Shown: positions 754 through 47,064 of the stretch, piece after piece
How the letters are laid out: each line of letters starts with the position of its first letter
Numbering within the stretch: position 1 is the stretch's first letter
The notes under the pieces: generated by a model
What the model was told of the DNA's origin: nothing
The model's input: only the letters and a program-made list of their open reading frames with translations
Databases searched by the model: none
Virus record (IMG/VR): IMGVR_UViG_3300028610_002615
From: an uncultured virus (IMG/VR IMGVR_UViG_3300028610_002615)
Taxonomy: Duplodnaviria > Heunggongvirae > Uroviricota > Caudoviricetes
DNA length: 64,000 nt
Strand: one strand, 5' to 3'
Translations under genes and position numbers: made by a program

Positions 754-3444
754 TTATGGTATCAATTCATAGTATAAATACATTGTTACATAGTCTACGG
801 CAGCCCAGTCATAGAAAATAAAGAATCCTTCAGCAGCATTTTTTGACATAATATCATTTTCGCTATTTGTGAAATATGTACTAAAGTCAAGTTGTTTAAG
901 GGTTAAAATTGTATTATTTGGCCATATGCCTGCAACAGTAGGGTTATAGCTTCTGTCATCTGCGCCTGTCCTTAAATTGTCAATAAGTTCGTCTGCCGCT
1001 TCACCATCATCAACTGTTATGTTTTCAAGTTCAATAATACTCATCTTTTTGTTACCATCATCTTGAATTTTATTTATATGAACAGTCAGATCAGGAGAAA
1101 CACCTTGTGCATAAGCATCTATCCTATATCCAATAATTCTGAAGTTTCTATTACCCATATCAGGATAACCAATCAGACCGTAGTCATAATTTATAGCTGA
1201 AATTCCTGCTGGAATATCTATATTTGTTATTTCCCACCATTTCTTATCTGTTTGATAGTATGTACCTGAGGCATCAACTGTTATTACTTCAGTATCACCA
1301 ATTACAGGTACTGCACTTGACTCATTAACAGAAGTTCCAGTAATTGTTACAACACCAGATCCTGTTAAACTATTGATAAATAACCAAGCGTGTTGATTTT
1401 CGGCTGCCCAGTCTGCTGCTTCATCTCCAACTATACCTGCGGCAACTGTTGAAAAAGTTCCAGTTAACTCAAAAGGTGTATCGGCAACTCCAGCTATCGT
1501 AGAAGTATACATCATAGTTTGCATTTGATCAACTGATGGATGTGAATCTGAAACAATTCTTCCCTCTACTCCTATAGAAGTAGCAACTCCAATTGGATGA
1601 GCGATACTTGGAGACTTAGGTCTTTCACTAGTTATTACACCAGCAGTAGAATCAGAAATATATAAAATATCTCCAGGATCAAACTGAGATGTATCTACAT
1701 CATTAACTGCTCCTGTAACAGTAGTATATCCATCAGTACCATTATCTATATCATGGGTTGCTATAGTTACACTTGCTAGAGTAGAAACATCATCTGCTTT
1801 GGCAAGTTCAATAGTTGGTAGTCCTTGACTTGCTCCGCTAATATAAACAGGAGCACCATCAGGAATCAATGCTCCAGATTCATTTCTTACTCTTAGATGA
1901 GACTCCTGACCAACTTGTAGTGTGACAGCTGCTACATCATTATACACACCAAAAGTATGGTTGTCAGTGTCCCAGAAAACTCTTCCTTCTTGCCAAGCTG
2001 GTTTTTCATGGGCAATATCAAAATCAACATGTTTAACATCAATAAGACGTTCAACACTGATTTCAAGATTGTCTGTTCCATCAGTTCCTGGTACAGGCCA
2101 GAACATTCTTTGTGTATCAGTTCCTAACCTAGTCATATATCCAAGTGTTACAAAATCTGTAGATGATACTGGATCAATACCACCAACTGTTCCTGTGAAA
2201 TCTCTTGTTCCAGTAACTAATGAGTATTGAGTATGATCATCATTTGCAAGACCGCTTAAGTTTCCATGAACTGTCGTTCCTGCAAAGCTTAGAGTGTTGT
2301 CAAATGCAGTTTGAACTTCCCAAGCAATTACCGTAGCTTGTTGAAAAATAATTCTTCCTAACAGTAGAGAGTGTTCTGCTAAAATATGTGGAATATCTCC
2401 TGGAGCTGCTTCTGCTTCTGCTGTTGCTAGTGAATTAGTATTTGAAGTTCCATAAAGCATATGTAAACTATTATCGCTTGGAATCAGATAGAACCATAGA
2501 TTCCCATATCTATTATTATTAAGAAGTGCTAAATTTCCAGAACCATCATCGTATAGCAGATTTGGCCATTGAGTATTTCCCTGTGTAACATTCCATCCAC
2601 TACCACCATCACTCCAGTATTCTGCAAATTCACCTCCTGTTTCTGTATCAATAGCATCTATTGCGTCATACTCTAACAGGGCCCAAACATTTCCTTCTGA
2701 CATTGTAACATATTGACCGCCATCAGCAGATTCACCAAGAATAAGACCTGTACCTCCTACACGCATTACAGGTACAGTATCATACATCCTTTCAAGTAGT
2801 CTTGCTTTAAAATCACCAGCTCTCTGTACTATATTCGATAAGAACAGAGCGCCATCAACTGTTTCAATTTCACCAAGGACAATCATATCGCTTGTATTCA
2901 CATTACTTATATCTTCTCCAAAGACTTGTGGACTACCCGAATTGTATTTAACAACAATATTCTTCGTTACATCTTCTGGAAAATACAAACTTGTTCCGGG
3001 CCAATCAATAAATACAAGAGGTGCAGTTCTACTATCTGAAGTTCTAATCAGACCTGTACCTGCTGTTATACTAATAGTTGATGTACTGTCTTCAGAAATT
3101 ACACCACCAGAGATAACACCTGCTGATTGTAATTGATCAAGGCCTTCTTGTGCTGTACTATATGTTGCACCTTCAACTTTATTATAGCTGACATCCTGAG
3201 CTAAAACTCCAGTTGTACCATCGAGAGTTAAGTTTCCACTAACATATAGATTACCAGTAACTAAAGCTCCATCTGACGTTGTTTCAAATCTCTTAATTTC
3301 AGCATGATAAAGTTCCACCGCACCGCTGGATGGGTTTAATAAAAGGTCTGAACCATCATATTTTATAAGAGATTCTTGACTATCGCCAAGTTGGATTTGT
3401 TGGTCGGTTTTTAGTTGAAGATTGCCCCTTTTAAAGTGTGCCAT
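754..3444 (-). CDS. Tail fibre / virion structural protein
   Basis: 896 aa, acidic G/T/S-rich; GAVELYH..KRFETTSDG and HGNLSGLANDDHTQY motifs typical of phage fibre proteins; lies in structural cluster. Confidence 0.7.
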   Translation of the reverse strand: MAHFKRGNLQLKTDQQIQLGDSQESLIKYDGSDLLLNPSSGAVELYHAEIKRFETTSDGALVTGNLYVSGNLTLDGTTGVLAQDVSYNKVEGATYSTAQEGLDQLQSAGVISGGVISEDSTSTISITAGTGLIRTSDSRTAPLVFIDWPGTSLYFPEDVTKNIVVKYNSGSPQVFGEDISNVNTSDMIVLGEIETVDGALFLSNIVQRAGDFKARLLERMYDTVPVMRVGGTGLILGESADGGQYVTMSEGNVWALLEYDAIDAIDTETGGEFAEYWSDGGSGWNVTQGNTQWPNLLYDDGSGNLALLNNNRYGNLWFYLIPSDNSLHMLYGTSNTNSLATAEAEAAPGDIPHILAEHSLLLGRIIFQQATVIAWEVQTAFDNTLSFAGTTVHGNLSGLANDDHTQYSLVTGTRDFTGTVGGIDPVSSTDFVTLGYMTRLGTDTQRMFWPVPGTDGTDNLEISVERLIDVKHVDFDIAHEKPAWQEGRVFWDTDNHTFGVYNDVAAVTLQVGQESHLRVRNESGALIPDGAPVYISGASQGLPTIELAKADDVSTLASVTIATHDIDNGTDGYTTVTGAVNDVDTSQFDPGDILYISDSTAGVITSERPKSPSIAHPIGVATSIGVEGRIVSDSHPSVDQMQTMMYTSTIAGVADTPFELTGTFSTVAAGIVGDEAADWAAENQHAWLFINSLTGSGVVTITGTSVNESSAVPVIGDTEVITVDASGTYYQTDKKWWEITNIDIPAGISAINYDYGLIGYPDMGNRNFRIIGYRIDAYAQGVSPDLTVHINKIQDDGNKKMSIIELENITVDDGEAADELIDNLRTGADDRSYNPTVAGIWPNNTILTLKQLDFSTYFTNSENDIMSKNAAEGFFIFYDWAAVDYVTMYLYYELIP

Positions 3445-3516: not shown

Positions 3517-4713
3517 TTAATTATTTGAGCTTGAGCTACTACTTGAGATCGAACTACTTGATCTTGAGCTACTTGAGCTTGATCTACTTGAACTTGAACT
3601 ACTTAAGCTGCTTGAACTGCTTGAGCTACTTGATCTACTTGAACTTGAACTACTTAAGCTTGAGCTGCTTGAACTGCTTGATCTACTTGAGCTTGAACTA
3701 CTTGAGCTTGAACTACTTGATCTACTTGAACTTGAACTACTTGAACTTGAACTACTTGAACTTGATCTACTTGAACTTGAACTACTTAAACTCGAACTAC
3801 TTGAGCTTGATGAACCAAGTAGTGCATCAGTAACAATCCATGAAACTTCATAGTTATCAGTATCCATCGGACTTGAAAACATTACTTTGAAACCATCAAT
3901 TGTTTTCTCGAATACACCACTCACAAATAGCAATGGTGGATTATCTACAGTATTAACTATTGAATATCCAATCGAATAATTTAATGAACCCTGTTGTTGA
4001 ACAAAAATAATATCTGCTGTTGTATCACCAGTTGATAGTTCTAAATTACCAGTTTCGATTCCTAATCCTATTTGTGCATCAACATAAGTTTTAACAGCAT
4101 TTTGAGTTGGTACCTTTGTATCCGAAGTTCCTAATGATGTGTCGTTTGAAAATTCATCTGCTTGAACTCCACTTTGTAATTTAAGTTTATTTACTTTAAG
4201 ACCGTCTGTATCTGCGGTTAGAGTTACGTTTCCTAAATAGATACTACTTCCAGATATAAATAGATCATCTGCATGGATATTACCAGAAAATATTACAGAT
4301 GTCGCATCTGAACTTATTTGATTATATAATTGTGCATCAAGATGATAAAACTCTAATGCAGTTGAATCTCCACCTTGTAATCCAATGAGTTCATTATGAT
4401 CTATTTCCAATAACGAAAATTCAGTATCAACATATGTCTTAACTGCTTTTTCTGTTGGAACTGCTATATCTGAATCGCCTCCTAATGTTCCATCGGTTGA
4501 GAATTCATTAACAGTTGCTCCACTTAAAACTTTAAGACTCGAGAATATTCCAGTTGATTCATTAGTTCCACCTATTGGACCGGGAGACCCCATAAGAGTC
4601 GCAAGAGTAATTCTGCTAGTTGTTGTAGTGTCAACATCCACTATCGCAAATAAATCTGCAACAGCTGGAGCGGCACTCATCGGTGGTAGTTGCGAAATCT
4701 TTAAATCTGGCAT
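3517..4713 (-). CDS. Virion structural protein with C-terminal poly-Ser tail
   Basis: N-terminal KISQLP motif, two EFSxDxxLGxxxxxVPTxxAVKTYVD repeats, 96-codon Ser-rich C-terminus. Confidence 0.7.
   Translation of the reverse strand: MPDLKISQLPPMSAAPAVADLFAIVDVDTTTTSRITLATLMGSPGPIGGTNESTGIFSSLKVLSGATVNEFSTDGTLGGDSDIAVPTEKAVKTYVDTEFSLLEIDHNELIGLQGGDSTALEFYHLDAQLYNQISSDATSVIFSGNIHADDLFISGSSIYLGNVTLTADTDGLKVNKLKLQSGVQADEFSNDTSLGTSDTKVPTQNAVKTYVDAQIGLGIETGNLELSTGDTTADIIFVQQQGSLNYSIGYSIVNTVDNPPLLFVSGVFEKTIDGFKVMFSSPMDTDNYEVSWIVTDALLGSSSSSSSSLSSSSSSRSSSSSSSSSSSSSSRSSSSSSSSSSSSRSSSSSSSSLSSSSSSRSSSSSSSSSLSSSSSSRSSSSSSRSSSSISSSSSSSNN
3526..3813 (-). repeat. Poly-Ser coding repeat (TCA/AGT/AGC alternation)
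   Basis: Imperfect ACTTGA/GCTTGA hexamer tandem; 96 codons almost all Ser with interspersed R/L/I. Confidence 0.95.
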
Positions 4714-24219: not shown

Positions 24220-25671
24220 TTATCCACTGATTGTCAGTGTAGCAATTCCAGCTGCTCTTACTAATGCAGTCGCGTATCTTGATAAGATTGTCAGACTTGG
24301 TGTAAATCCTAAAGGATACGGATGTAAAACCGCGGGAACGTAAGGAGAGTAGAAATAAATAGCTTTCAACTCTTCTACTGGTTTATAAACCATTAACATC
24401 GTCCCTTGTGTAACAACTGCAGATGTTAGAACTCTCCATTTTCCACCAGCAACTGTAGCACTTCTATATCCAAGATCACCATCAACAGACGATGTTCCTG
24501 TGTAGTTGAATGTTTGCAGGTCTTCTAGGATTGCAACATCTAGTGGGTTAGCAGCAATTGTGTTACCCGCTTCAATGTTTGTATCTTCGTAGATTTGTCC
24601 TGAAAGTTCATTCAGTGGTACGATGATATTTTCATGCCAATACTTAGTTCCCCAAGTATATGTGTTTGGCGGAGTTCTACTGAAAGCTCTTGTATGTGTA
24701 GCATCATTCAGTCTGGTATTTGCTGTAACCAGAGCATTGATGATTTCTCTATCAATGTCTAAAGCAACCTGTTGGCCCAGAATGTTTACAATTTCCGCTT
24801 GCATGGAGATATCAAACAGAGCACGCATATCCTGTTCCATGTTGATGGTCCAGTTTGCGCTGATCTGTCTGTCTCTTGCATACAGACGAATCTTATCTAC
24901 GTTCAGGGTTACTGAAGGATTGATTCTGTTTTCTTCTAGTGAAGTTGTTACTTGGTAACGAGCGAAAGTAACAGTTCCAGTTGTGCTGGAAATGTCAACT
25001 GTTCCCGCCAGGTAGTCAACTTTACCTGAGATAACGTCTGCTACACCACCGACTGTTACACTAGCTGAGAAGTGACCTTCAACAGCTGGTACAATAGAAA
25101 CGTCAGTGAAGTTAGTTCCGTCGGTAGAAACACCAGTAATCTCGAAATCTCTCTCTAAGTGTGCTTCCGTACTAGTTAATCCGACTTGCGCCAGTACATC
25201 ATAACCTGAACTCGGAACGGCCATTGATGCAGCGACAGGAGTTCCAAATGCAACACCACGAGAAATGTCCGTATTAACAACAGGAGCATTATACTGTGTT
25301 GAACTATTTGAAGGTGTAAATGTCGCTCTTACGAATGCTTTAACAGATTCAGGTTTATCCATAGGTGAAACTGTTACTAGCTCTTTCGCAACTAGTTTAG
25401 GATAGAACACACGAAGAATTGGAAGTGTCAATGTTTCATAAGGGTTGATCTGGAACATTGAATTTTCAAGAAGGTTTATTCTGGTATTTTCTGCCAGTTG
25501 TAGGAACTGAGCACGGTCTTTCTTATTCTCGATAGATTCGGCCAGACCTTGAGAGTATGCACTCCAAGCAGCGTCATCGACAAGAACTTGTTTCAGATTT
25601 CCGGGCTTTGATGGATCTACTCCACTAATTTTCTTTGTGGTCTGGTAGACTTCAAGCAGTAATTCCTTCAT
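24220..25671 (-). CDS. Major capsid protein (T4 gp23-like)
   Basis: PILRVFYPKLVAKELVTVSPM, ANWTINMEQDMRA...LDIDREII, YSPYVP, SRYA gp23-family motifs. Confidence 0.9.
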   Translation of the reverse strand: MKELLLEVYQTTKKISGVDPSKPGNLKQVLVDDAAWSAYSQGLAESIENKKDRAQFLQLAENTRINLLENSMFQINPYETLTLPILRVFYPKLVAKELVTVSPMDKPESVKAFVRATFTPSNSSTQYNAPVVNTDISRGVAFGTPVAASMAVPSSGYDVLAQVGLTSTEAHLERDFEITGVSTDGTNFTDVSIVPAVEGHFSASVTVGGVADVISGKVDYLAGTVDISSTTGTVTFARYQVTTSLEENRINPSVTLNVDKIRLYARDRQISANWTINMEQDMRALFDISMQAEIVNILGQQVALDIDREIINALVTANTRLNDATHTRAFSRTPPNTYTWGTKYWHENIIVPLNELSGQIYEDTNIEAGNTIAANPLDVAILEDLQTFNYTGTSSVDGDLGYRSATVAGGKWRVLTSAVVTQGTMLMVYKPVEELKAIYFYSPYVPAVLHPYPLGFTPSLTILSRYATALVRAAGIATLTISG

Positions 25672-31959: not shown

Positions 31960-33138
31960 TTACACTCTAAGATCGTCTGAATCAATTTCGTCTACATCTT
32001 CATTTTCGATTTCTTCTTTAAAAAGCTCAAATGCTTCTCCATAGTATTTCTCATCTTCTTCCCAGTCTTCACCTGTTTTTTTAGGAGAAGGTCCACCTGG
32101 AACGGCTGTTTGTTCTTCGACGTCTGACTCTTCTTCTAGTTCAGATTCTAAAATGCCTAAAGACTCTTTCATTTCTTTATCAACATCAAGATCTTCACCT
32201 TCATCTTCGCCTTTATCATCAGGTGTTGGAGGTTCATCATCTTGCTCTTGAAGTTCCAGTTCTAGATCTTCAAGAATATCAGACTCAATTACATCAAGAC
32301 CTTCTGTAGTCTTGTTTTCATCTCTAAAGGCATTTGGTTTTACCATTTTATCATGGAGATCTTTTCTTGGTGGAATTTGACCTTCATCAGGTCCAGTTCC
32401 AGCCTGATCAGTTCCAGCGCCATGTGTATCTTCTTCTGAATCTCTAGATTTCTTTTCGTCTTTAGCATTCATGCCAGGTGCTACGTCGTCACCTGTGTAA
32501 CTCATAACATCTGCTTCATCTAGATCATCTGCTTCCATTTCAGAGATGAGTTTTTCGATAATGGCATTTTCCATATCGGAACCTTCATCTTCTGTGGTTA
32601 CTTCTTCTTCACGATATTTTTTGGCTTTTGGAACATCTTTATCTGACCATTCATCTTCTTGAAGTTCTGATTCGGCACCTTCTTCAAGAGCTGTTTCAAG
32701 ATCGTCTAAAGCTAGTTCAACATCTTCTTTAGCAATATCTTCTTTCTTCTCTTCTTTGGATCCTAAAATAGTCGGTGAATCGCTTGTTCCGGCTTGCTCA
32801 GTTCCGGCACCTTTAGCGTTTTCCATTCCCTTACCAGATGCAGACCCTTTATCATTTTCCTCTGCCTTTGATAGAGAGTCACCTGTTCTCTTATCAGCCA
32901 TTGTAGCAGCATCTTCTTCTCCGAGAACTTCAATGGGTTGTTCTTTATCTTCATTAAAGTAATACCTTTCAAGAATGCTAGCTGCATCTTTATAAGTCGG
33001 GATCTCTCCACCGCCATCCCACGAGATAATTGGGTCTAACATCGGACCCTTTACTTCTAGATTATCGCTCGTATCAAATTCCGAAATCGCTTCCTTGAGC
33101 AAATTCATGTATGATTGTTTTTTACTCTGTGTATTCAT
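31960..33138 (-). CDS. Highly acidic scaffold/prohead-core-like protein
   Basis: 392 aa very D/E-rich, repeated GAGT(E/D)QAGT, many L/I-x-E sites matching gp21-type cleavage consensus. Confidence 0.55.
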   Translation of the reverse strand: MNTQSKKQSYMNLLKEAISEFDTSDNLEVKGPMLDPIISWDGGGEIPTYKDAASILERYYFNEDKEQPIEVLGEEDAATMADKRTGDSLSKAEENDKGSASGKGMENAKGAGTEQAGTSDSPTILGSKEEKKEDIAKEDVELALDDLETALEEGAESELQEDEWSDKDVPKAKKYREEEVTTEDEGSDMENAIIEKLISEMEADDLDEADVMSYTGDDVAPGMNAKDEKKSRDSEEDTHGAGTDQAGTGPDEGQIPPRKDLHDKMVKPNAFRDENKTTEGLDVIESDILEDLELELQEQDDEPPTPDDKGEDEGEDLDVDKEMKESLGILESELEEESDVEEQTAVPGGPSPKKTGEDWEEDEKYYGEAFELFKEEIENEDVDEIDSDDLRV

Positions 33139-34746: not shown

Positions 34747-35154
34747 TTATCTCAATTTTGATTTTGTTACTGAAATGTTAATCATCTTCCCTATTATTTC
34801 TTCATCTATTTCTTTTGCTATTTCTTCACTCATAGCATCAATTATTTTTTGTCCTAGATCACTATCATACAAACCACATAAATCTTCTTGTTCTTCTAAT
34901 GTCCAATCTGCTTTTAGAGTGTGATATGGACTGGGCTTACCCATAATCCTTTCAATCCAGTCTAGCTTTCCAGCACCCCAACATCTATCACATCTATAGT
35001 CCCAATCTTTTTCACCGACTATCCAGCCAGTACCTTTACACTTAGGACATATTATATCCCCCGGATCAAGCGTGGGCTTGGCGGTAGAGGTGGCCCCTTC
35101 TTTCTTTTTCCCATTGCTTTTTCTATCCAATCTAATACTCCTGTTCCAAAACAT
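34747..35154 (-). CDS. DnaJ-type Zn-finger protein fused to capsid-like helix (ZnF-F); start uncertain
   Basis: CPKCKGTG..CDRCWGAG-KLDWIERIMG core; tail aligns with MCP 268-314. Confidence 0.8.
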   Translation of the reverse strand: MFWNRSIRLDRKSNGKKKEGATSTAKPTLDPGDIICPKCKGTGWIVGEKDWDYRCDRCWGAGKLDWIERIMGKPSPYHTLKADWTLEEQEDLCGLYDSDLGQKIIDAMSEEIAKEIDEEIIGKMINISVTKSKLR

Positions 35155-35303
35155 TTATGACAAACTAAACCTTGCCTATATGGATCATAAGATGATTTGA
35201 TTCGTTCAAGGGGTATAGTTCCTTTCCCTTTACATTTATCACAAAACTCTTCTCCTTCTTCTGCACGAATATACTTTTTTATGTGAGTATTAAAAACTGT
35301 CAT
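35052..35303 (-). CDS. DnaJ-type Zn-finger protein with Pro-rich tail (ZnF-E)
   Basis: CDKCKGKG..CHKCFGTG-VLDWIEKAMG core. Confidence 0.8.
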   Translation of the reverse strand: MTVFNTHIKKYIRAEEGEEFCDKCKGKGTIPLERIKSSYDPYRQGLVCHKCFGTGVLDWIEKAMGKRKKGPPLPPSPRLIRGI

Positions 35304-36705
35304 ATTTCATTATCCTAGTTTTTTCATCTAGATCTATAAACTCATCCTTTGCTAAATGTTTTGTGATAAGATACTGACAATAATCTTCATCAAGATTTTT
35401 TAACATATCAAGAGATTTTGCAATGCTACTTGATTTAATTTTTTGCTTTTTAGTCAATTTTCCTTGATTCAAAACTCTAGTCATCTCAAGGCATTCATCA
35501 TTAAAATCTTCAACATGTCCTTGCTCATATAGTTTATAAGATTCATATGCAAACTTTTTCATGTCCTCTTGAATCTCTTGATATAAATCTAATGTGTAAA
35601 GAACTGAATATGCTTTAACATCTTCATGAAAAGTTTTCGTATTTGGATCATATACTCCATCAGTCTTAATTCTTTTGAAGTTCCATTTATCAGATACATG
35701 ATCAACTATATCCTGATATATACTTTCAATAGATCTATCTTCTCCAGAAGGACCAAAAGGTATATTAAATCTGTATCCAATATTATCGCTCTTAACATTC
35801 ATCTTTCTCATGTAACCTTCTTCATCTCTAACATTTAAGAAACGAGCATTCATAACTTGTTTATAAAGACCAGATGAGTCATATGTAATATTTAAATCCA
35901 TTCCATGCATTTTCTTTACAGCATGCTGACACATCTCATAAAATAAAACATCTCTAAAATTAGCACCACCCAGAATATGAAAGTTCAAATAGTTTCGTCC
36001 ACATCTCTTTGCTTCATTTAATAATGGAATCATTGGTAAAACATATATAACACAAGGTATAGTCATATCACTTGCCATGTTTGCTACAATACCACCAGTC
36101 CCATGATATTCAAATGAATCAAACATATCATAGTCTCTCATTATCTTTGTGTATATTTCCCAAAGTTTTGGAGTTCTAAAGTGGTGAATATAAATCATTT
36201 TCTTTCTTAATTCATCTGGAAGTTCTTTTGCTTTTTGATACGATTCTAAATTTAATTTATAAACATCATAAAAGTTTTTGAATATCTCACACCCTGGTCC
36301 AGGTGGAACATCCAAAATAAAAAACTTGTCAACAACATGGGCAGCTTGTGGAATCCAATCGTAGTACATATCCAACAGAAGCTCAGATTCACGTCTTGTT
36401 AATTTACCAATGGAAATCTGGAATCCTCCGCTATCCGCAATTAATGTGCAGTCATCAAAGAATCCCATATCTCTACATTTCTGGTACATCCCAGTTTCAT
36501 TTGCATTATATTTTTCATACTTCTTTTTGTTATGAAAATTCTGACCATAAGAATGTAAATAACCTGTTATAGTTTGAGATAGAAATTTACCTACTTCTTC
36601 TCTAGTAAAATTGTTTTCCCATCTCCCTCTTTTGCCTAACATAAAGTTGTCGAATATTGTAGCTAATGTTTCGAAACCTGCGAGAATGTAACCACTTTGT
36701 ATCAT
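35290..36705 (-). CDS. TGT-fold protein, DpdA-like deazaguanine DNA transglycosylase
   Basis: IADSGGFQ, ILDVPPGP, FHILG, YDSS motifs; ATG 36705 after GAAGGAG; QueE 3.4 kb away. Confidence 0.7.
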   Translation of the reverse strand: MIQSGYILAGFETLATIFDNFMLGKRGRWENNFTREEVGKFLSQTITGYLHSYGQNFHNKKKYEKYNANETGMYQKCRDMGFFDDCTLIADSGGFQISIGKLTRRESELLLDMYYDWIPQAAHVVDKFFILDVPPGPGCEIFKNFYDVYKLNLESYQKAKELPDELRKKMIYIHHFRTPKLWEIYTKIMRDYDMFDSFEYHGTGGIVANMASDMTIPCVIYVLPMIPLLNEAKRCGRNYLNFHILGGANFRDVLFYEMCQHAVKKMHGMDLNITYDSSGLYKQVMNARFLNVRDEEGYMRKMNVKSDNIGYRFNIPFGPSGEDRSIESIYQDIVDHVSDKWNFKRIKTDGVYDPNTKTFHEDVKAYSVLYTLDLYQEIQEDMKKFAYESYKLYEQGHVEDFNDECLEMTRVLNQGKLTKKQKIKSSSIAKSLDMLKNLDEDYCQYLITKHLAKDEFIDLDEKTRIMKYDSF

Positions 36706-36949
36706 TATTTGCTCCTTCTCTTTTAGTTGATGTACTATACGAACATGAACTTGACGAACAACTACAGCAAGAGAGTTCCTGCTCAAAATGTTTACCCATT
36801 GCCATTTGAATCCAATCAAGTTTTCCGTCGCCCCAACATTTATTACATGGTTTCCATTTTACACCCCAAGGTGTATGATCGTTATACGTTTCACCTTTTC
36901 CTTTACACTTGGGACATATTTCTTCACCTGGCAGTAATTCAATTTCCAT
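36602..36949 (-). CDS. DnaJ-type Zn-finger protein with Ser/Cys-rich tail (ZnF-D)
   Basis: CPKCKGKG..CNKCWGDG-KLDWIQMAMG core. Confidence 0.8.
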   Translation of the reverse strand: MEIELLPGEEICPKCKGKGETYNDHTPWGVKWKPCNKCWGDGKLDWIQMAMGKHFEQELSCCSCSSSSCSYSTSTKREGANNDTKWLHSRRFRNISYNIRQLYVRQKREMGKQFY

Positions 36950-37209
36950 TACATCACCCTTATTCCTATTTTCGTAGTTTCTAATATCTTTCTTCCTCTA
37001 TGATAAAGTTCAACTGATCCATCAGAGGCGGCTCTGAGAAAAGACGAGGATGATTGTTTACCCATTGCCATTTCAATCCAGTCAAGTTTTCTATCACCCC
37101 AACATCTATGACATGTTATTCTAATACCATCTATAAAATTCCCAGGTTCTTCACCACTTCCCTTACAATTAGGACATATTTCTTCACCTGGTGCTAATTC
37201 AAGTTTCAC
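36949..37209 (-). CDS. DnaJ-type Zn-finger protein fused to tail-fibre motif (ZnF-C)
   Basis: CPNCKGSG..CHRCWGDR-KLDWIEMAMG core; tail GSVELYH..K.LETT. Confidence 0.8.
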   Translation of the reverse strand: MKLELAPGEEICPNCKGSGEEPGNFIDGIRITCHRCWGDRKLDWIEMAMGKQSSSSFLRAASDGSVELYHRGRKILETTKIGIRVM

Positions 37210-37499
37210 TATCTCTTAAATCCTTTCACTATTCCTGGACTAGGCATTGGTTGAACGCCTACAAGATCTTTAGCAATTAACTTTGGATAATGATGCCTTA
37301 CTAAAGGAATTTGTACTGAATCATAAGGGGATAGTTCCCTTTGTCCCATCGCTCTTGTAACCCAATCAACTTTTCCAGTTCCACGACATCTAAAACAAAT
37401 AAAGTAAAAAGAACGGTCTGTTTCATCTCTTTCGTTATTTCCTGTTCCTTTACATTTAGGGCATATTTCTTCACCTGGGAGCAATTCAATTTTATGCAT
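37209..37499 (-). CDS. DnaJ-type Zn-finger protein fused to capsid Gol-like peptide (ZnF-B)
   Basis: CPKCKGTG..CFRCRGTG-KVDWVTRAMG core; tail aligns with MCP 74-115. Confidence 0.85.
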   Translation of the reverse strand: MHKIELLPGEEICPKCKGTGNNERDETDRSFYFICFRCRGTGKVDWVTRAMGQRELSPYDSVQIPLVRHHYPKLIAKDLVGVQPMPSPGIVKGFKR

Positions 37500-37725
37500 T
37501 ATTCACCTCAGAATTGATGACTAAGCTATGATCTACTTCTTTTGTATATACACCTGGTCTAACTAAATGCCCTTGCACTCCCATTATGTTCTCCACCCAA
37601 TCAACAATTCCTTTTCCTTTACACTTTGGACAAAGTTTTGACCAATGATGCGAATGACCTGGAGACACGATTTCACCTTGACCAGAGCATTCCGAGCATA
37701 CCATTTCTCCTGGTTTCAATTCCAT
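37492..37725 (-). CDS. DnaJ-type Zn-finger protein fused to tail-sheath-like N-terminal motif (ZnF-A)
   Basis: ATG 37725 after GAGGTG; CSECSGQG..CPKCKGKG-IVDWVENIMG; tail RPGVYTKEVDHS. Confidence 0.8.
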   Translation of the reverse strand: MELKPGEMVCSECSGQGEIVSPGHSHHWSKLCPKCKGKGIVDWVENIMGVQGHLVRPGVYTKEVDHSLVINSEVNNA

Positions 37726-38249
37726 TATATCACCTCTATTGTATATGGAGGACCACAAGATGTCAAAAATTCTGTTGCGGCATTCAAGGCTAAATAAACT
37801 TTCTGCTCGGGTGTAAGATCAAAATCCTTGCTTGTAAAAAGAGATCCCAAAGCTATTGAAGAACCTGCTCCAATTGATGTATAACCTTCCTTATTTACTT
37901 CATTAATTTGAAAGTCGGATAGTAATTCATATAACTTTCCTTTACTAGCGATAATAAAATTACTCGACTGTACTTCAACTTGCCCTTCACTTCTAATCAT
38001 GGCGCCCCTTTCAGTAATTTGTTCCCTAATTATATCAGGCCATCCCCAAATATTCCTCGGAAGTTTATAAGAACTACGTTGAATAATTTGTCCAGTTCTT
38101 ATAGATCCTGCAAACCCGAATAGATAAGATCCTCTTCTAAATATCTTAGTCGCATTTATCGGGTGTCTATCTCCATCTTCAGTTGATGCAACTCCGTCAC
38201 AACCCAAATAGACTTTTTTCTTATGTATAAGTCCAACAATACAAGACAT
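37725..38249 (-). CDS. HslV/proteasome-beta-like Ntn-hydrolase peptidase
   Basis: M-SCIVG...VYLGCD, KIF, GFAGS, SIGAGS..ALG motifs. Confidence 0.75.
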   Translation of the reverse strand: MSCIVGLIHKKKVYLGCDGVASTEDGDRHPINATKIFRRGSYLFGFAGSIRTGQIIQRSSYKLPRNIWGWPDIIREQITERGAMIRSEGQVEVQSSNFIIASKGKLYELLSDFQINEVNKEGYTSIGAGSSIALGSLFTSKDFDLTPEQKVYLALNAATEFLTSCGPPYTIEVI

Positions 38250-38452: not shown

Positions 38453-39244
38453 TTATTCCCCTTTTAATTTCATATCATCTCGCATCCTTAAACATTTAGC
38501 AAGATCAAATGAGTAGTCATAGATGTGCAACCCTTTACTTGAAGCAATAATTTCACCATCTTCTACACCAATTTCTGCTGCAACATATTCTTTCAGTAGC
38601 TGAATCCCACCGAGATTGGCAGGTAACCCACCCCATAAGTCCCAGCTGCGGAAATATGGATAAAAATGTAATTTTCCATCTTGAATCCTCGTATCAATAT
38701 GTCTTAAACAAGGCGGATCTTGAAGTAACATATCATCAGGTTGAGCAACTTGCAGAACCATTTGATTATTTCTATATCCTTTATTTTTATAAGTCCATAT
38801 TAAAAGATCAACTTGACTTAAAAATCCAGATTTTCTGACTTGATTCCATGCTTCATCATCTTGAATAAGAATTTCCTTATTATTTTCATCACCATAATAT
38901 CGTCCCCACAAAGGATCAATTCTAACTTTTGTCATTCGTTGACCATAAGTATAAGACTCACCCGGACTAACATCTCCAGTCATTAGATACGAAATATATT
39001 CATCTAAATAATCATCTTCGACTGGATTTGGAATGCTATAATGTTCTTCAATTTGTGGCAGCAAAGGACGAGTGCCTGGATGTTCGATTTCAATAACAAC
39101 AAAATCAAACTCCAATCTCTTTTGACCAGCAAATGATCCTCGATCAATTTTGAATACTGAACCTTCTTCGAGTATTCTATAAAGAGTTTGAAACCAGGCA
39201 TCTCCTAAATCCCGCGCCTTAATGTATTGATAATTAAGGGGCAA
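38453..39244 (-). CDS. thyA: Thymidylate synthase (ThyA-fold)
   Basis: YTYGQR, DPPCL, FRSWDLWGGLPAN, GLHIYD; probable TTG start after GGAGGTG. Confidence 0.8.
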   Translation of the reverse strand: MPLNYQYIKARDLGDAWFQTLYRILEEGSVFKIDRGSFAGQKRLEFDFVVIEIEHPGTRPLLPQIEEHYSIPNPVEDDYLDEYISYLMTGDVSPGESYTYGQRMTKVRIDPLWGRYYGDENNKEILIQDDEAWNQVRKSGFLSQVDLLIWTYKNKGYRNNQMVLQVAQPDDMLLQDPPCLRHIDTRIQDGKLHFYPYFRSWDLWGGLPANLGGIQLLKEYVAAEIGVEDGEIIASSKGLHIYDYSFDLAKCLRMRDDMKLKGE

Positions 39245-39635
39245 TGATCTCACCTCCAGCCTGTGTTTGTCTGAGTCCTGACAATGGTTGAATAAGAGGT
39301 GTTCCTTCTGTAGAACCTGCTAATGTCATCTCACTCAGATTTGCAATGAAATCTTCGTTTGTCAAGATTCCATATACATCAAAAATAGTAACAATTCTCA
39401 AAATCTGCCCTTCCATGACCAGGTCGAATCCGGCATGAGTCTGAAAAACAATCACATCACCTTCTTTAAGATTCTTTTCTGGTGTATCTTTATATGTAGG
39501 AACTTCAGGACCAACTGAAATGATCTCTCCGTATCCTTGAGGATCAGCAGAATTACCCGGTAGTACGATACCGCCTGCGGTCTTCTCTCTCCTCAGAAGT
39601 TTTACTAATACTTTGTCTCCCACTGCTTCTATCAT
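39234..39635 (-). CDS. groES: GroES-like co-chaperonin
   Basis: GDKVLVK...KTAGGIVLP, G.IISVGP, GD.IVF. Confidence 0.85.
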   Translation of the reverse strand: MIEAVGDKVLVKLLRREKTAGGIVLPGNSADPQGYGEIISVGPEVPTYKDTPEKNLKEGDVIVFQTHAGFDLVMEGQILRIVTIFDVYGILTNEDFIANLSEMTLAGSTEGTPLIQPLSGLRQTQAGGEIIAP

Positions 39636-40095: not shown

Positions 40096-40770
40096 TTATA
40101 CGAAACCAAATATTATATGACTTCTTGATGAAAAACACATTCTAAACTCTTCGCAAATATCAAATGTTTCTTCAGCATTTTTGATTAGTTCAGCTCTTGT
40201 AACACCCTGTGGCATTACCCAAACTCTATGCTCAGTTAATAAATCTTCTTGATGAGTTAACCACGCCAAAAATGCTTTAGTGTGAGCGTTACCATCCCAA
40301 ACAATTTTCAAATAAACATTATGATGACCTATAATTGTCTCTGCTGTTTGTTTAGCGATTTTGAAATCATCTGAATTGAAGATTTTTGGCGAGTACATAA
40401 ATTTGACGGGTTTTCTTGGATCGACTTCTTGTATAAATTCATAAAGTCTGAATCCATTTGATTCAACATTTGCTACTGGGTAATTAAGATCATTCAAAAG
40501 AGATACTGCTTCATTAAAATGTTTTGGAACTGTTGGTTCTCCACCTGTGACGAGGATACCAGCTTTTCTTTGATTAATAGTCTTTTGAATGTCTGATAAT
40601 TTATACGGTGCTTCAGAAGATACTCTCATTTTCACTGCTGTATCACACCAATAACATTTTAAATTACACGTTTTAAATCTGAGTATAATCATGGTTCGGC
40701 CAGAATCTATTCCTTCTCCTTGCCATGAAACAAAATTCTCAATTAAGTGTGCTACTTTTTCTTCGGACAT
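40096..40770 (-). CDS. queE: 7-carboxy-7-deazaguanine synthase-like radical SAM enzyme
   Basis: F.SWQGEG..SGR, CNLKCYWCDT, TGGEP, ESNG, SPK, MPQG. Confidence 0.85.
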   Translation of the reverse strand: MSEEKVAHLIENFVSWQGEGIDSGRTMIILRFKTCNLKCYWCDTAVKMRVSSEAPYKLSDIQKTINQRKAGILVTGGEPTVPKHFNEAVSLLNDLNYPVANVESNGFRLYEFIQEVDPRKPVKFMYSPKIFNSDDFKIAKQTAETIIGHHNVYLKIVWDGNAHTKAFLAWLTHQEDLLTEHRVWVMPQGVTRAELIKNAEETFDICEEFRMCFSSRSHIIFGFV

Positions 40771-46371: not shown

Positions 46372-47064
46372 ATGGAAAGGAGTTTACGCATGGAATCTAT
46401 GGAGTTAGGTCACGCTGAGAAACTTATCGGAATTGGAACTGAATATGACATGCAACATGTGTTGAAATGTTTCGAAATTGTTCACTGGGCAAACAAACAA
46501 AATCGAGAGTTCGACTTGATGCCGACTACTATTAAAGCGAAGAATGTCATAATGCGTCACCTTGTAACAGAACAGAAGAAGAAATTTCGTTTCTTCGAAA
46601 TTGAATCGCCTTATGAAGACCCGTGTCCAAAATGTAAAGGTGCTGGTGAAATCTACAAATTTTTCAAAAAAAGTGTTAAGGTAAATTGTCACATCTGTGG
46701 AGGATCAGCTACAGTTATGGGAGCATGCCCAAAATGTAAAAACACTCCTGGTAGATTCATCAAGCGCTGGACAACAGGTGGAGGAGTTGATTTAGTATGT
46801 AAAAGATGTGATGGTGAAGCAAAAGTTAAATTCAAATGCGAAGAGTGCAAAGGTAAAGGAAAAATTCAAAAGGCAGTCTTAAGTGACGAACTAAAATCAA
46901 CAACCCCCTGTAAAAAATGTCGTGAGTTAGGATTTATATCAAAAGATTTCCCAAGTCCGAAAAAGAAAAAACAACACTCACATCAACGTCGTCCATTTAA
47001 TCCTATCTCAAAAATCACCAGCAAAGATGGAAAAACTCTCGCAGATGTAATAAAGACCAGTTAA
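46372..47064 (+). CDS. DnaJ-type multi-Zn-finger protein (no J domain)
   Basis: Six CxxC(xGxG) motifs; no HPD. Confidence 0.75.
   Translation: MERSLRMESMELGHAEKLIGIGTEYDMQHVLKCFEIVHWANKQNREFDLMPTTIKAKNVIMRHLVTEQKKKFRFFEIESPYEDPCPKCKGAGEIYKFFKKSVKVNCHICGGSATVMGACPKCKNTPGRFIKRWTTGGGVDLVCKRCDGEAKVKFKCEECKGKGKIQKAVLSDELKSTTPCKKCRELGFISKDFPSPKKKKQHSHQRRPFNPISKITSKDGKTLADVIKTS

Follow-up and report, generated by a model that had tools for sequence, protein, structure and literature searches.

Why would one virus carry six variants of a small zinc finger, each ending in a different tail? This question is raised by an array of genes at positions 34747-37725 of a 64,000-nucleotide (nt) stretch of DNA from an uncultured virus (IMG/VR record IMGVR_UViG_3300028610_002615), the whole of which is called the window here. 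Six small minus-strand open reading frames (ORFs), designated Z1 to Z6, were found in the array; they share a zinc-finger core of about 50 residues, which is followed by unrelated tails. An earlier reading of this DNA (the original prediction) had proposed a constant zinc-finger scaffold displaying swappable peptides of virion proteins. The constant scaffold with exchangeable virion-derived tails was recovered here and was extended to a wider family; the functional alternatives offered with it were left unseparated. In the recurrent classes that were identified, the copied pieces are conserved subunit-contact elements of virion proteins. The genes of the array are as follows.

Z1, 37492..37725, minus strand: 77 amino acids (aa); core plus a class D tail with the tail-sheath N-terminal motif PGVYTKEVDHS (class D profile, expect value (E) 4e-17).
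Z2, 37209..37499, minus strand: 96 aa; core followed by a class A tail with homology to residues 74-115 of the major capsid protein (MCP; N-arm and first P-domain strand).
Z3, 36949..37209, minus strand: 86 aa, from a GTG that overlaps the stop of Z2; core followed by a class C tail, which is a repeat motif of tail fibres (VELYHRGRKILETT).
Z4, 36602..36949, minus strand: 115 aa; core plus a Ser-rich tail, which continues as a basic stretch over the first ~100 nt of orf471.
Z5, 35052..35303, minus strand: 83 aa; core plus a short Pro-rich tail; a G_GGA_AAA heptamer lies on the MGK codons.
Z6, 34747..35154, minus strand: 135 aa from the ATG; core followed by a class B tail with homology to MCP residues ~270-315 (the spine helix and the strand that precedes it).
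orf471, 35290..36705, minus strand: 471 aa; splits the array into Z1-Z4 and Z5-Z6.

Z6 has an alternative start, a TTG at 35130 (34747-35130), which gives a protein of 127 aa. In the alignment of the six cores, G6, C10, C13, G15, G17, C32, C35, G37, D42, W43, M48, and G49 were invariant, and the core ended in LDWIxxxMG. The six ORFs and their common core were thus as predicted, but the shared motif had been drawn too strictly: the second knuckle of Z3 deviates, with GDR for GxG (it reads CxxCxGxR), and Z5 is without the L.PGE start. The alignment of the six window proteins also confirmed that the tails after the invariant MG are mutually unrelated.

Three of the tails could be compared directly with two virion proteins encoded in the window.

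MCP, 24220..25671, minus strand: 483 aa, T4 type (phrog_20655, E 6e-40; phrog_138, E 2e-32).
Tail-fibre protein, 754..3444, minus strand: 896 aa (phrog_5668 tail fiber, E 8e-23); the Z3 motif lies near the N-terminus (nt ~3259-3363).

The six Z proteins were compared with all 556 stop-to-stop ORFs of the window by BLASTP. Z2 55-96 aligned with MCP 74-115 (47.6% identity over 42 aa, E 2e-10), and Z6 80-125 aligned with MCP ~270-315 (28% identity over 46 aa, E 1e-6); the MCP segments copied in Z2 and Z6 correspond to nt ~25327-25452 and ~24727-24870. Profiles of the class A, B, and C tails were built solely from homologues outside the window (21, 20, and 10 members). For each profile the expected virion protein was the best window match after the zinc-finger gene itself, and no other window ORF fell below E 0.1; the window MCP was matched at E 1.4e-18 by class A and at E 4.2e-16 by class B. 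The major head family phrog_138 matched Z6 (E 5.3e-8) and Z2 (E 1.7e-5), although the tails cover just 32-51 residues of its 444-position profile. The two capsid assignments of the original prediction, MCP 74-115 for Z2 and 268-314 for Z6, are therefore upheld.

Beyond the window, tblastn of Z2 matched 110 phage records, and the matches listed fall under annotated major capsid genes of T4-like phages. Many homologues carry precomputed PF07068 labels. The class A and B profiles also matched gp23 of T4 (98-121 and 263-311, respectively; the class A alignment envelope is 94-134) and gp23 of S-ShM2. By phrog_138, BLASTP, and the profiles, the Z2 and Z6 tails are homologous to T4-type MCPs; at 28-63 aa, the tails do not hold a complete HK97-type fold with its A, P, and insertion domains. 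Class A represents the capsid N-arm and first P-domain strand, and class B the capsid spine helix; the two are core elements of the P domain.

The class A alignment falls inside the Gol region of T4 gp23, which we take to span residues 93-122, so that the link to Lit and Gol suggested earlier has become sharper than first stated. PMC3014915 (available text) describes Gol as 29 residues long, located in the first quarter of gp23 and better conserved than any other part of the protein; Gol binds domains II and III of EF-Tu and licenses Lit. The Z2 tail resembles the T4 Gol peptide in this alignment to 98-121; in T4 the peptide is part of the capsid protein, whereas here it is a free-standing tail on a zinc finger and is known by positional homology. 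In T4 gp23, Met98 belongs to the N-terminal region from which the N-arm forms on expansion, and residues 292, 306, and 307, all three of which are gp31-bypass sites, lie in the spine helix (available parts of PMC9546572); the class B tails cover this spine-helix region.

The window MCP is a distant T4-type protein, 23-24% identical to T4-like MCPs (tblastn and identities). Class A tails averaged 46% identity to the window MCP segment and 41-43% to the T4 and S-ShM2 segments; the window MCP segment itself was only 26-33% identical to the latter two. GVQPM is kept in class A tails, as in T4 and S-ShM2, whereas the clade MCPs, including that of the phage itself, read TVSPM. This difference fits a mimic aimed at canonical T4-type capsids, or a sequence that may have been retained from an older state. 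One tail, P0106, was 74-79% identical to the clade MCP segment, which suggests recent capture and that fragments are still being captured. As the source of the tails of the window, a direct recent copy of the phage's own MCP was unsupported, identity being just 46% (class A) and 27-30% (class B).

The Z3 tail had been assigned to residues 34-63 of the tail fibre, and this placement was reproduced: Z3 51-85 aligned with ~28-62 of the 896-aa fibre (45.7% identity over 35 aa, E 0.002), and the class C profile matched the same protein at E 8.8e-4. A scan found the motif V[DE]LYxxGxKxxETT in at least 122 stretches of viral sequence. The 80 loci for which DNA was available gave 76 distinct occurrences, 72 of them in ORFs of at least 300 aa; the motif was mostly internal, at a median of 286 aa from the first start, and 12 of the 12 ORFs tested matched PHROG tail-fibre families.

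No sheath gene was found within the window, and the claim that the Z1 tail is a sheath N-terminal motif was therefore tested on sequences outside it. (The record of L001, a distant array, also had no sheath.) DNA coding for PGVYVxEVD was found at 30 viral-contig loci in the IMG/VR scan, none of them adjoining a zinc finger. In 27 of the 30 the motif lay 3-9 codons after a start codon, in ORFs of 395-1027 aa. Twenty-five of the 30 ORFs were sheath proteins: 20 were recognised by the profile of a further tail class, class H, which was built from zinc-finger-borne sheath C-terminal tails alone, and 5 more by Pfam, which was run on 14 of the 30, including all seven long ORFs missed by the class H profile. 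Among the five unassigned ORFs, two long ones were cut at locus ends and three were small.

Class H tails are ~90 residues long and were found in homologues, with none in the window. The tail of P0325 is a full sheath C-terminal domain (PF17482, 32.6 bits against a cut-off of 26.9, positions 2-103 of 104); P0271 and P0251 were below the threshold of this family and P0291 did not match it. By tblastn, P0325 matched 58 phage records, and of the 12 listed, 11 were annotated as tail sheath and one was unannotated. Class D itself gave less in direct searches: a Pfam scan (E<=10) of 12 members returned no sheath family, the class D profile had no significant match to T4 gp18 or S-ShM2 gp18, and a word-index search for longer class D-like proteins returned DnaJ-like and longer finger proteins only. 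A word-index search with the P0325 tail had no match. The tblastn matches of P0109 at E 2-3 in the C-terminal part of the PBS1/AR9 sheath were discarded as chance on reading the alignment.

From the class H domains and the PGVYVxEVD scan, the Z1 tail is, at the level of sequence, the N-terminal strand of a tail sheath, as had been supposed. In the sheath of phage XM1, the N-terminus pairs with the C-terminus of a neighbour, and this 'handshake' augments the C-terminal domain of the subunit in the next ring (PMC10457771, available text). The finger family thus displays both 'handshake' partners, the N-terminal strand in class D and the C-terminal domain in class H. A separate observation was made in L080, a 436-kb IMG/VR contig: an ORF of 62 aa at ~2986-3108 consists mostly of a sheath-type N-terminus (M..YVSPGVYVKEVD...) without a zinc finger, and may be a free-standing gene for a sheath N-terminal peptide in a very large viral contig.

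How far do such fusions extend? A HMMER scan of 1.84 billion representatives gave 2597 clusters at E<=1e-3; at the stricter E<=1e-10 there were 520, all of them from uncultivated contigs. A word-index search with the alignment of the six proteins gave 221 proteins at E<=1e-3 (120 of them listed). Among 50,697 phage isolate records there was no match to the whole array (blastn, set for distant matches) or to Z6 (tblastn) at this sensitivity, and among 185,579 species genomes there was one marginal match of 19 residues only. Source databases name the members generically ('hypothetical protein', 'DnaJ-class molecular chaperone'). Two members, P0055 and P0092, carry the source label of a Heimdallarchaeaceae metagenome-assembled genome, which is taken as a label only. 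For comparison of loci, 52 metagenome loci and one viral locus were used; one of them, L002, was identical to the window. The arrays in these loci contained 1 to 11 finger genes. Assembly chimeras were rejected as an explanation, given 52 independent metagenome loci.

Tail classes were counted in the best 150 representatives (clusters at 50% identity), the classes being defined partly by our own patterns and profiles.

Class A (capsid N-arm, Gol-equivalent): 28 of 150.
Class B (capsid spine helix): 26 of 150.
Class C (fibre repeat): 10 of 150.
Class D (sheath N-terminus): 14 of 150.
Ser-rich tails: 4 of 150.
Virtually no tail: 2 of 150.
Core-end motif unmatched by the pattern: 2 of 150.
Other tails, including the sheath C-terminal-domain class: 64 of 150.

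Classes A-D thus accounted for 78 of the 150. In a PHROG scan of the same proteins, the named non-finger families were only major head (phrog_138 in 11, phrog_12830 in 6) and tail sheath (phrog_23 in 2, phrog_10581 in 2). An enrichment of homologue tails for structural fragments, which had been named as a support for the prediction, was therefore observed. Inspection of the 'other' group by eye showed a recurrent tail, GxxYxDxxxxxxxxYxGxxW, presumably one that also occurs in fibre proteins.

A second sample consisted of 227 distinct tails from the compared loci and the first 120 proteins of the word-index search. They fell into a mixed Ser-rich/class B cluster (79), clusters of class A (27), class C-like (19), and class D (15), and twelve small clusters (29 in all); 39 were singletons and 19 were shorter than 12 aa. 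Class-specific invariant residues were retained in the tails.

What kind of protein is the handle? The Cys and Gly residues of the finger were invariant in the 150 representatives, and the two CxxCxGxG knuckles supply four Cys for one zinc. In 12 class D members, PF00684 (DnaJ_CXXCXGXG) scored 17-28 bits, below its cut-off of 32.7. PF15777 (Anti-TRAP) was the best or second-best Pfam match in 11 of the 12 and third equal in the other (E 5e-7 to 7e-3), with a top score of 30.1 bits, under the gathering cut-off of 32. Pfam scans of 26 members found no J domain (PF00226) and no C-terminal client-binding domain (PF01556). In a profile search of the PDB, DnaJ 1EXK was the best match (E 2.2e-5), followed by Anti-TRAP 3LCZ (0.011) and 2BX9 (0.14) and by BSD2 6EKB (0.62). 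An AlphaFold2 model of Z2 (146-row alignment) had a mean predicted local distance difference test (pLDDT) score of 75.6, with 81-93 in the core (blocks 1-60: 71-93) and 52-65 in the tail; a short helix lies at residues 46-51. The model of Z6 (12-row alignment; mean pLDDT 50.3) was unusable for fold searching. Foldseek with the Z2 model placed DnaJA2, BSD2, and Anti-TRAP best, at E 0.03-0.1; BSD2 chains stood at ranks 4-7, three of the four with a probability of 0.96-0.98 (8ILB, 6EKC) at E 0.05-0.1, with a template-modelling score of ~0.3 for the whole model over 39 aligned columns. Taken together, these searches and models indicate that the core is a single-zinc finger of the DnaJ cysteine-rich type, closed by the LDWIxxxMG helix and predicted to be followed by a flexible tail.

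The closest known proteins share parts of this design. Bacterial DnaJ (Hsp40) has the same CxxCxGxG motif, and the best PDB profile match above is E. coli DnaJ; however, DnaJ has a J domain, a client-binding domain, and two zinc centres, whereas the Z proteins have one centre in 77-135 aa. Anti-TRAP (RtpA, 53 residues) is similar in its N-terminal strand, its one zinc centre built from two CxxCxGxG knuckles, and its C-terminal helix, and it works by binding and blocking another protein; it differs in having no tail, and the scores of the Z family for it are below the gathering cut-off. BSD2, the plant Rubisco assembly chaperone, is likewise a small stand-alone CxxCxGxG protein without a J domain (PF25436 gave weak matches), but it contains two zinc centres and carries no copy of its client, and the matches here are below family thresholds. 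On an assembly intermediate, BSD2 reportedly keeps a site for subunit binding filled until the genuine partner takes its place, and this is the mode proposed below for the Z proteins. In donor-strand complementation by pilus chaperones and in sheath initiators, a strand or domain of the neighbour supplied in trans controls polymerisation, which is what classes D and H resemble; those are dedicated, conserved assembly proteins and not variable arrays of zinc-finger fusions.

Genes for an HslV-like peptidase and a GroES homologue are near the array, and a further DnaJ-like gene lies elsewhere in the window.

HslV-family-like peptidase, 37725..38249, minus strand: 174 aa (phrog_1040, E 3.5e-16).
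GroES/Cpn10 co-chaperonin homologue, 39234..39635, minus strand: PF00166, 53.4 bits against a cut-off of 21.1, and phrog_3188; same direction, 1.5 kb upstream of the array.
DnaJ-like protein, 46372..47064, plus strand: 230 aa with several CxxCxGxG knuckles; passes the DnaJ central-domain threshold at 36.7 bits.

The HslV-like peptidase had no Pfam match. Its stop overlaps the ATG of Z1 (TAATG), and throughout the run HslV-Z1-Z2-Z3-Z4 every stop overlaps the start of the next gene. In the clade of the window the gene order, with the number of homologues among the 52 loci, was polymerase (13), QueE-like (11), GroES (11), thymidylate synthase (16), HslV-like (17), fingers, orf471 (23), fingers, DnaB-like helicase (21), acidic protein (16), portal (11), protease (7), and MCP (4 full-length); 5 further MCP matches in the compared loci were class B finger tails. 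An HslV-like homologue lay within 1.6 kb of the array in 17 of the 52 loci, and an orf471 homologue adjoined finger genes in 23. The array therefore sits in a block of replication, nucleotide-metabolism, and proteostasis genes, directly upstream of the head genes. In the distant arrays (L001, L038, L040, L046, L042/43), all-against-all BLASTP (E 1e-8) found no HslV or GroES neighbour, and the same comparison gave no neighbours common to the window clade and the distant arrays beyond polymerase, an HNH gene, and the 230-aa DnaJ-like gene.

The array differs between close relatives. The MCPs of L019 and L032 were 80% and 83% identical to that of the window; in these two loci and in L022 and L023 there was no finger gene between HslV and orf471 and two after orf471, none of class A, C, or D. 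Array size thus ranged from 2 to 6 genes among close relatives. The tails were not neutral, as had been required of them: the ratio of nonsynonymous to synonymous substitution rates (dN/dS) was 0.13-0.76, below 1 in 13 of 13 pairs, and the frames were open without stops; for the cores it was 0.17-0.82, the synonymous rate (dS) being partly saturated. Purifying selection on the tails is shown by these comparisons of coding sequence. Between the window and L005, the helicase was 87% and orf471 93% identical and the nonsynonymous rate (dN) of core genes was 0.04-0.08, compared with 55% (core), 44% (tail), and a dN of 0.41-0.47 for Z6. Between the window and L031 the helicase (91%), orf471 (92%), and portal (90%) had a dN of 0.05-0.06, and Z6 was 64% (core) and 52% (tail) identical with a dN of 0.24-0.33. 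In the same genome pairs, the finger genes therefore changed 5-8 times faster than the neighbouring core genes.

What might the proteins do? The explanation we put first, and hold tentatively as a good possibility still short of probable, is that the tails act as competitive mimics of subunit interfaces and cap or poison the polymerisation of virion subunits. The Z proteins would be present before virion proteins accumulate, a timing suggested by gene order, with the replication and proteostasis block ahead of the head genes. On a capsid, sheath, or fibre subunit not yet assembled, each tail would take the place normally filled by the same segment of a neighbour, and the zinc finger would serve as a soluble, bulky cap that blocks further subunit addition. 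Two outcomes can be imagined: the phage's own subunits might be kept from aberrant polymerisation until the proper template displaces the Z protein, in the manner of BSD2 and Rubisco, or T4-type relatives that infect the same cell might have their assembly poisoned. Competition would be the simplest mechanism because it makes use of the conserved soluble handle, the flexible tail carrying a contact element, and the selection on the tail. Virion subunits are favoured as the target by the contact elements themselves, the presence of both halves of the handshake, the likeness to BSD2 and Anti-TRAP, and the neighbouring GroES and peptidase genes.

Several results weigh against this explanation. 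The spine helix is buried in the folded subunit, so that a copy of it would have no obvious docking site on the native monomer, and the binding of any tail to a subunit is something that we infer from sequence. The structural matches of the Z2 model were weak. About a third of the 227 tails, those of the mixed Ser-rich/class B cluster, together with the 39 singletons and the 19 virtually absent tails, are left unexplained by mimicry. Identity to the phage's own MCP segments is only 46% for class A tails and 27-30% for class B tails, although these segments are 89-97% identical among clade MCPs; if the own capsid were the partner, the tails might be expected to follow its sequence. With only two finger genes in L019 and L032, the proteins are evidently dispensable for assembly, and a dN of 0.24-0.47, against 0.04-0.08 for helicase, orf471, and portal, is a tempo typical of conflict genes over assembly factors. 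Dispensability in close relatives, fast evolution, and the poor match to the own MCP argue together against a housekeeping role in assembly and fit a role in conflict, either the poisoning of rival T4-type phages or interference with host sensors. A 'mimicry cassette', in which one zinc-finger handle with exchangeable conserved contact segments is a weapon that disarms host sensors or sabotages the assembly of competing T4-type phages, the own capsid being protected by its divergence (GVQPM against TVSPM), is possible, though we would not call it likely.

In another version of the conflict, one of the alternatives in the original prediction, the tails are immune decoys: they would mimic virion segments read by abortive-infection sensors (Lit/Gol, CapRel, and sheath or fibre types) and, ahead of the late proteins, engage the sensor or its co-factor in an unproductive way. 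We regard this as rather unlikely, although several points fit it. The class A tail aligns to gp23 98-121 in the Gol region, the segments that were copied are the best conserved ones in their proteins, such as sensors would tend to target, relatives whose MCPs are 80-83% identical differ in array size (2 to 6 genes), a dN 5-8 times that of flanking core genes is as in arms-race genes, and gene order suggests expression before the head genes. EF-Tu, on the other hand, is too abundant for titration, a whole sheath C-terminal domain and a buried spine helix would be odd epitopes for a sensor, and no precedent for phage antagonists that mimic a trigger was found in the literature searched. The Gol peptide alone activates Lit, and Gol bound to EF-Tu licenses it (available text of PMC3014915); sensors that fire on binding their trigger would make a decoy less easy, for a faithful mimic should trigger and not block. 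If instead the proteins were minor virion or assembly-initiation components, the tail would plug into the lattice where a neighbour's segment is missing (at vertices, or in the first or last sheath ring), like the strands of sheath initiators and terminators. The tails are the very strands and domains of lattice contacts, with the sheath N-terminal strand and C-terminal domain both present, and the array is directly upstream of the head block, but its presence varies among close relatives, it evolves fast, and it lies among replication and nucleotide-metabolism genes, outside the structural module; such a role is improbable.

A role as targeting adaptors is about equally hard to credit. Here the tail would bind a client, either the virion protein or its host binder, and the finger would pass it to the HslV-like peptidase or to GroEL/GroES. 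The HslV-like stop that overlaps the Z1 start, the similar overlaps through Z1-Z4, and the synteny of HslV-like and GroES genes in 17 and 11 of 52 loci speak for it, as do the gp31-bypass sites 292, 306, and 307 in the class B region (PMC9546572, available parts); however, that synteny is the one of a single phage clade as a whole, the distant arrays have no HslV or GroES neighbour, and a contact between finger and peptidase or chaperonin is purely hypothetical. Functionless debris, in which copies of a duplicating zinc-finger gene had been joined at random to pieces of structural genes, has very little chance of being the answer. Capture does seem to continue, with P0106 at 74-79% identity to the clade MCP segment, and 39 of the 227 distinct tails are singletons, but debris would not explain why 78 of 150 clusters (50% identity) share a few tail classes, each of which has retained its own invariant residues. 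The frames are also open, with a dN/dS under 1 in 13 of 13 pairs, and the class profiles still match the MCP at E 1e-16 to 1e-18. The evidence does not separate decoy, poison, and assembly adaptor; it leans to sites of subunit contact, as in the poison and adaptor readings.

In the literature (full text, supplements excepted), no zinc-finger fusions to virion-protein fragments and no phage-encoded arrays of capsid or sheath fragments were found described, including the available part of PMC7824862; the statement in the original prediction that no such array was known thus agrees with this search. The family of 520 clusters (E<=1e-10) is nearly absent from 185,579 species genomes and is without a functional name in the sources searched. 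If the tails are mimics of interfaces or epitopes, the arrays would be a natural, modular viral system of peptide display with one scaffold and many baits. The tails would then mark the segments of capsid, sheath, and fibre that are most important for assembly or host recognition, and could provide short peptides as reagents that may block the polymerisation of T4-type capsids and contractile sheaths. They also offer a new angle on a long-standing question, the reason for the strong conservation of the Gol region in gp23.

Further observations concern the surrounding genes. orf471 matched no PHROG or Pfam family, and the guess from a motif that it is a DNA transglycosylase like DpdA or tRNA-guanine transglycosylase was accordingly unsupported. 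At a distance of 3.4 kb, upstream of orf471, is the QueE-like radical-SAM gene (40096-40770, minus strand; phrog_2076, E 3e-32). Between the helicase and the portal block, a gene at 31960-33138 (minus strand) encodes an extremely acidic, D/E-rich protein of 392 aa, which is found in 16 related loci, has no family match, and may be a scaffold or internal head protein. The 230-aa DnaJ-like gene is kept in 10 related loci; in L014, L026, L041, and L051 it is adjoined by a finger gene with a two-repeat fibre-like tail.

The Ser-rich tail of Z4 and the short Pro-rich tail of Z5 had no significant virion-protein match (PHROG; BLASTP against the window ORFs). The Ser-rich-plus-basic tail of Z4 recurs in homologues. 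The Z4 frame stays open for ~100 nt into orf471 (36602-36705), and more than 15 homologues have a similar basic extension in an open frame; the extension may genuinely belong to the C-terminus of Z4, or be a mere shadow of conservation in the overlapping orf471. Another gene of the window (3517-4713, minus strand) encodes a fibre-like protein of 398 aa, in which the C-terminal ~130 residues are almost pure Ser with regularly spaced R/L. The Ser-rich tails of the Z4 type resemble this stretch of low complexity.

Z6 lies in the -1 frame of Z5, with an overlap of ~100 nt (35052-35154). In 5 of 5 pairs of a Z5-type gene with a class B gene (window, L005, L007, L031, and L044), the downstream ORF was in the -1 frame, and in 4 of the 5 the overlap had G_GGA_AAA or G_GGA_AAG. 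The same heptamer also occurred at 15 of 115 other distinct core ends, since GGA-AAA is the commonest Gly-Lys codon pair (28 of 66). Folding z-scores downstream of the heptamer were -1.9, -1.6, +1.8, and 0.1, with no consistent structure. The TTG start is always present as an alternative to frameshifting and is preceded by GGAG in the window. A programmed -1 frameshift of the lambda G/GT type, yielding a two-finger Z5-Z6 protein, is possible from the arrangement of the frames; a natural double-finger protein in one ORF was found in P0121.

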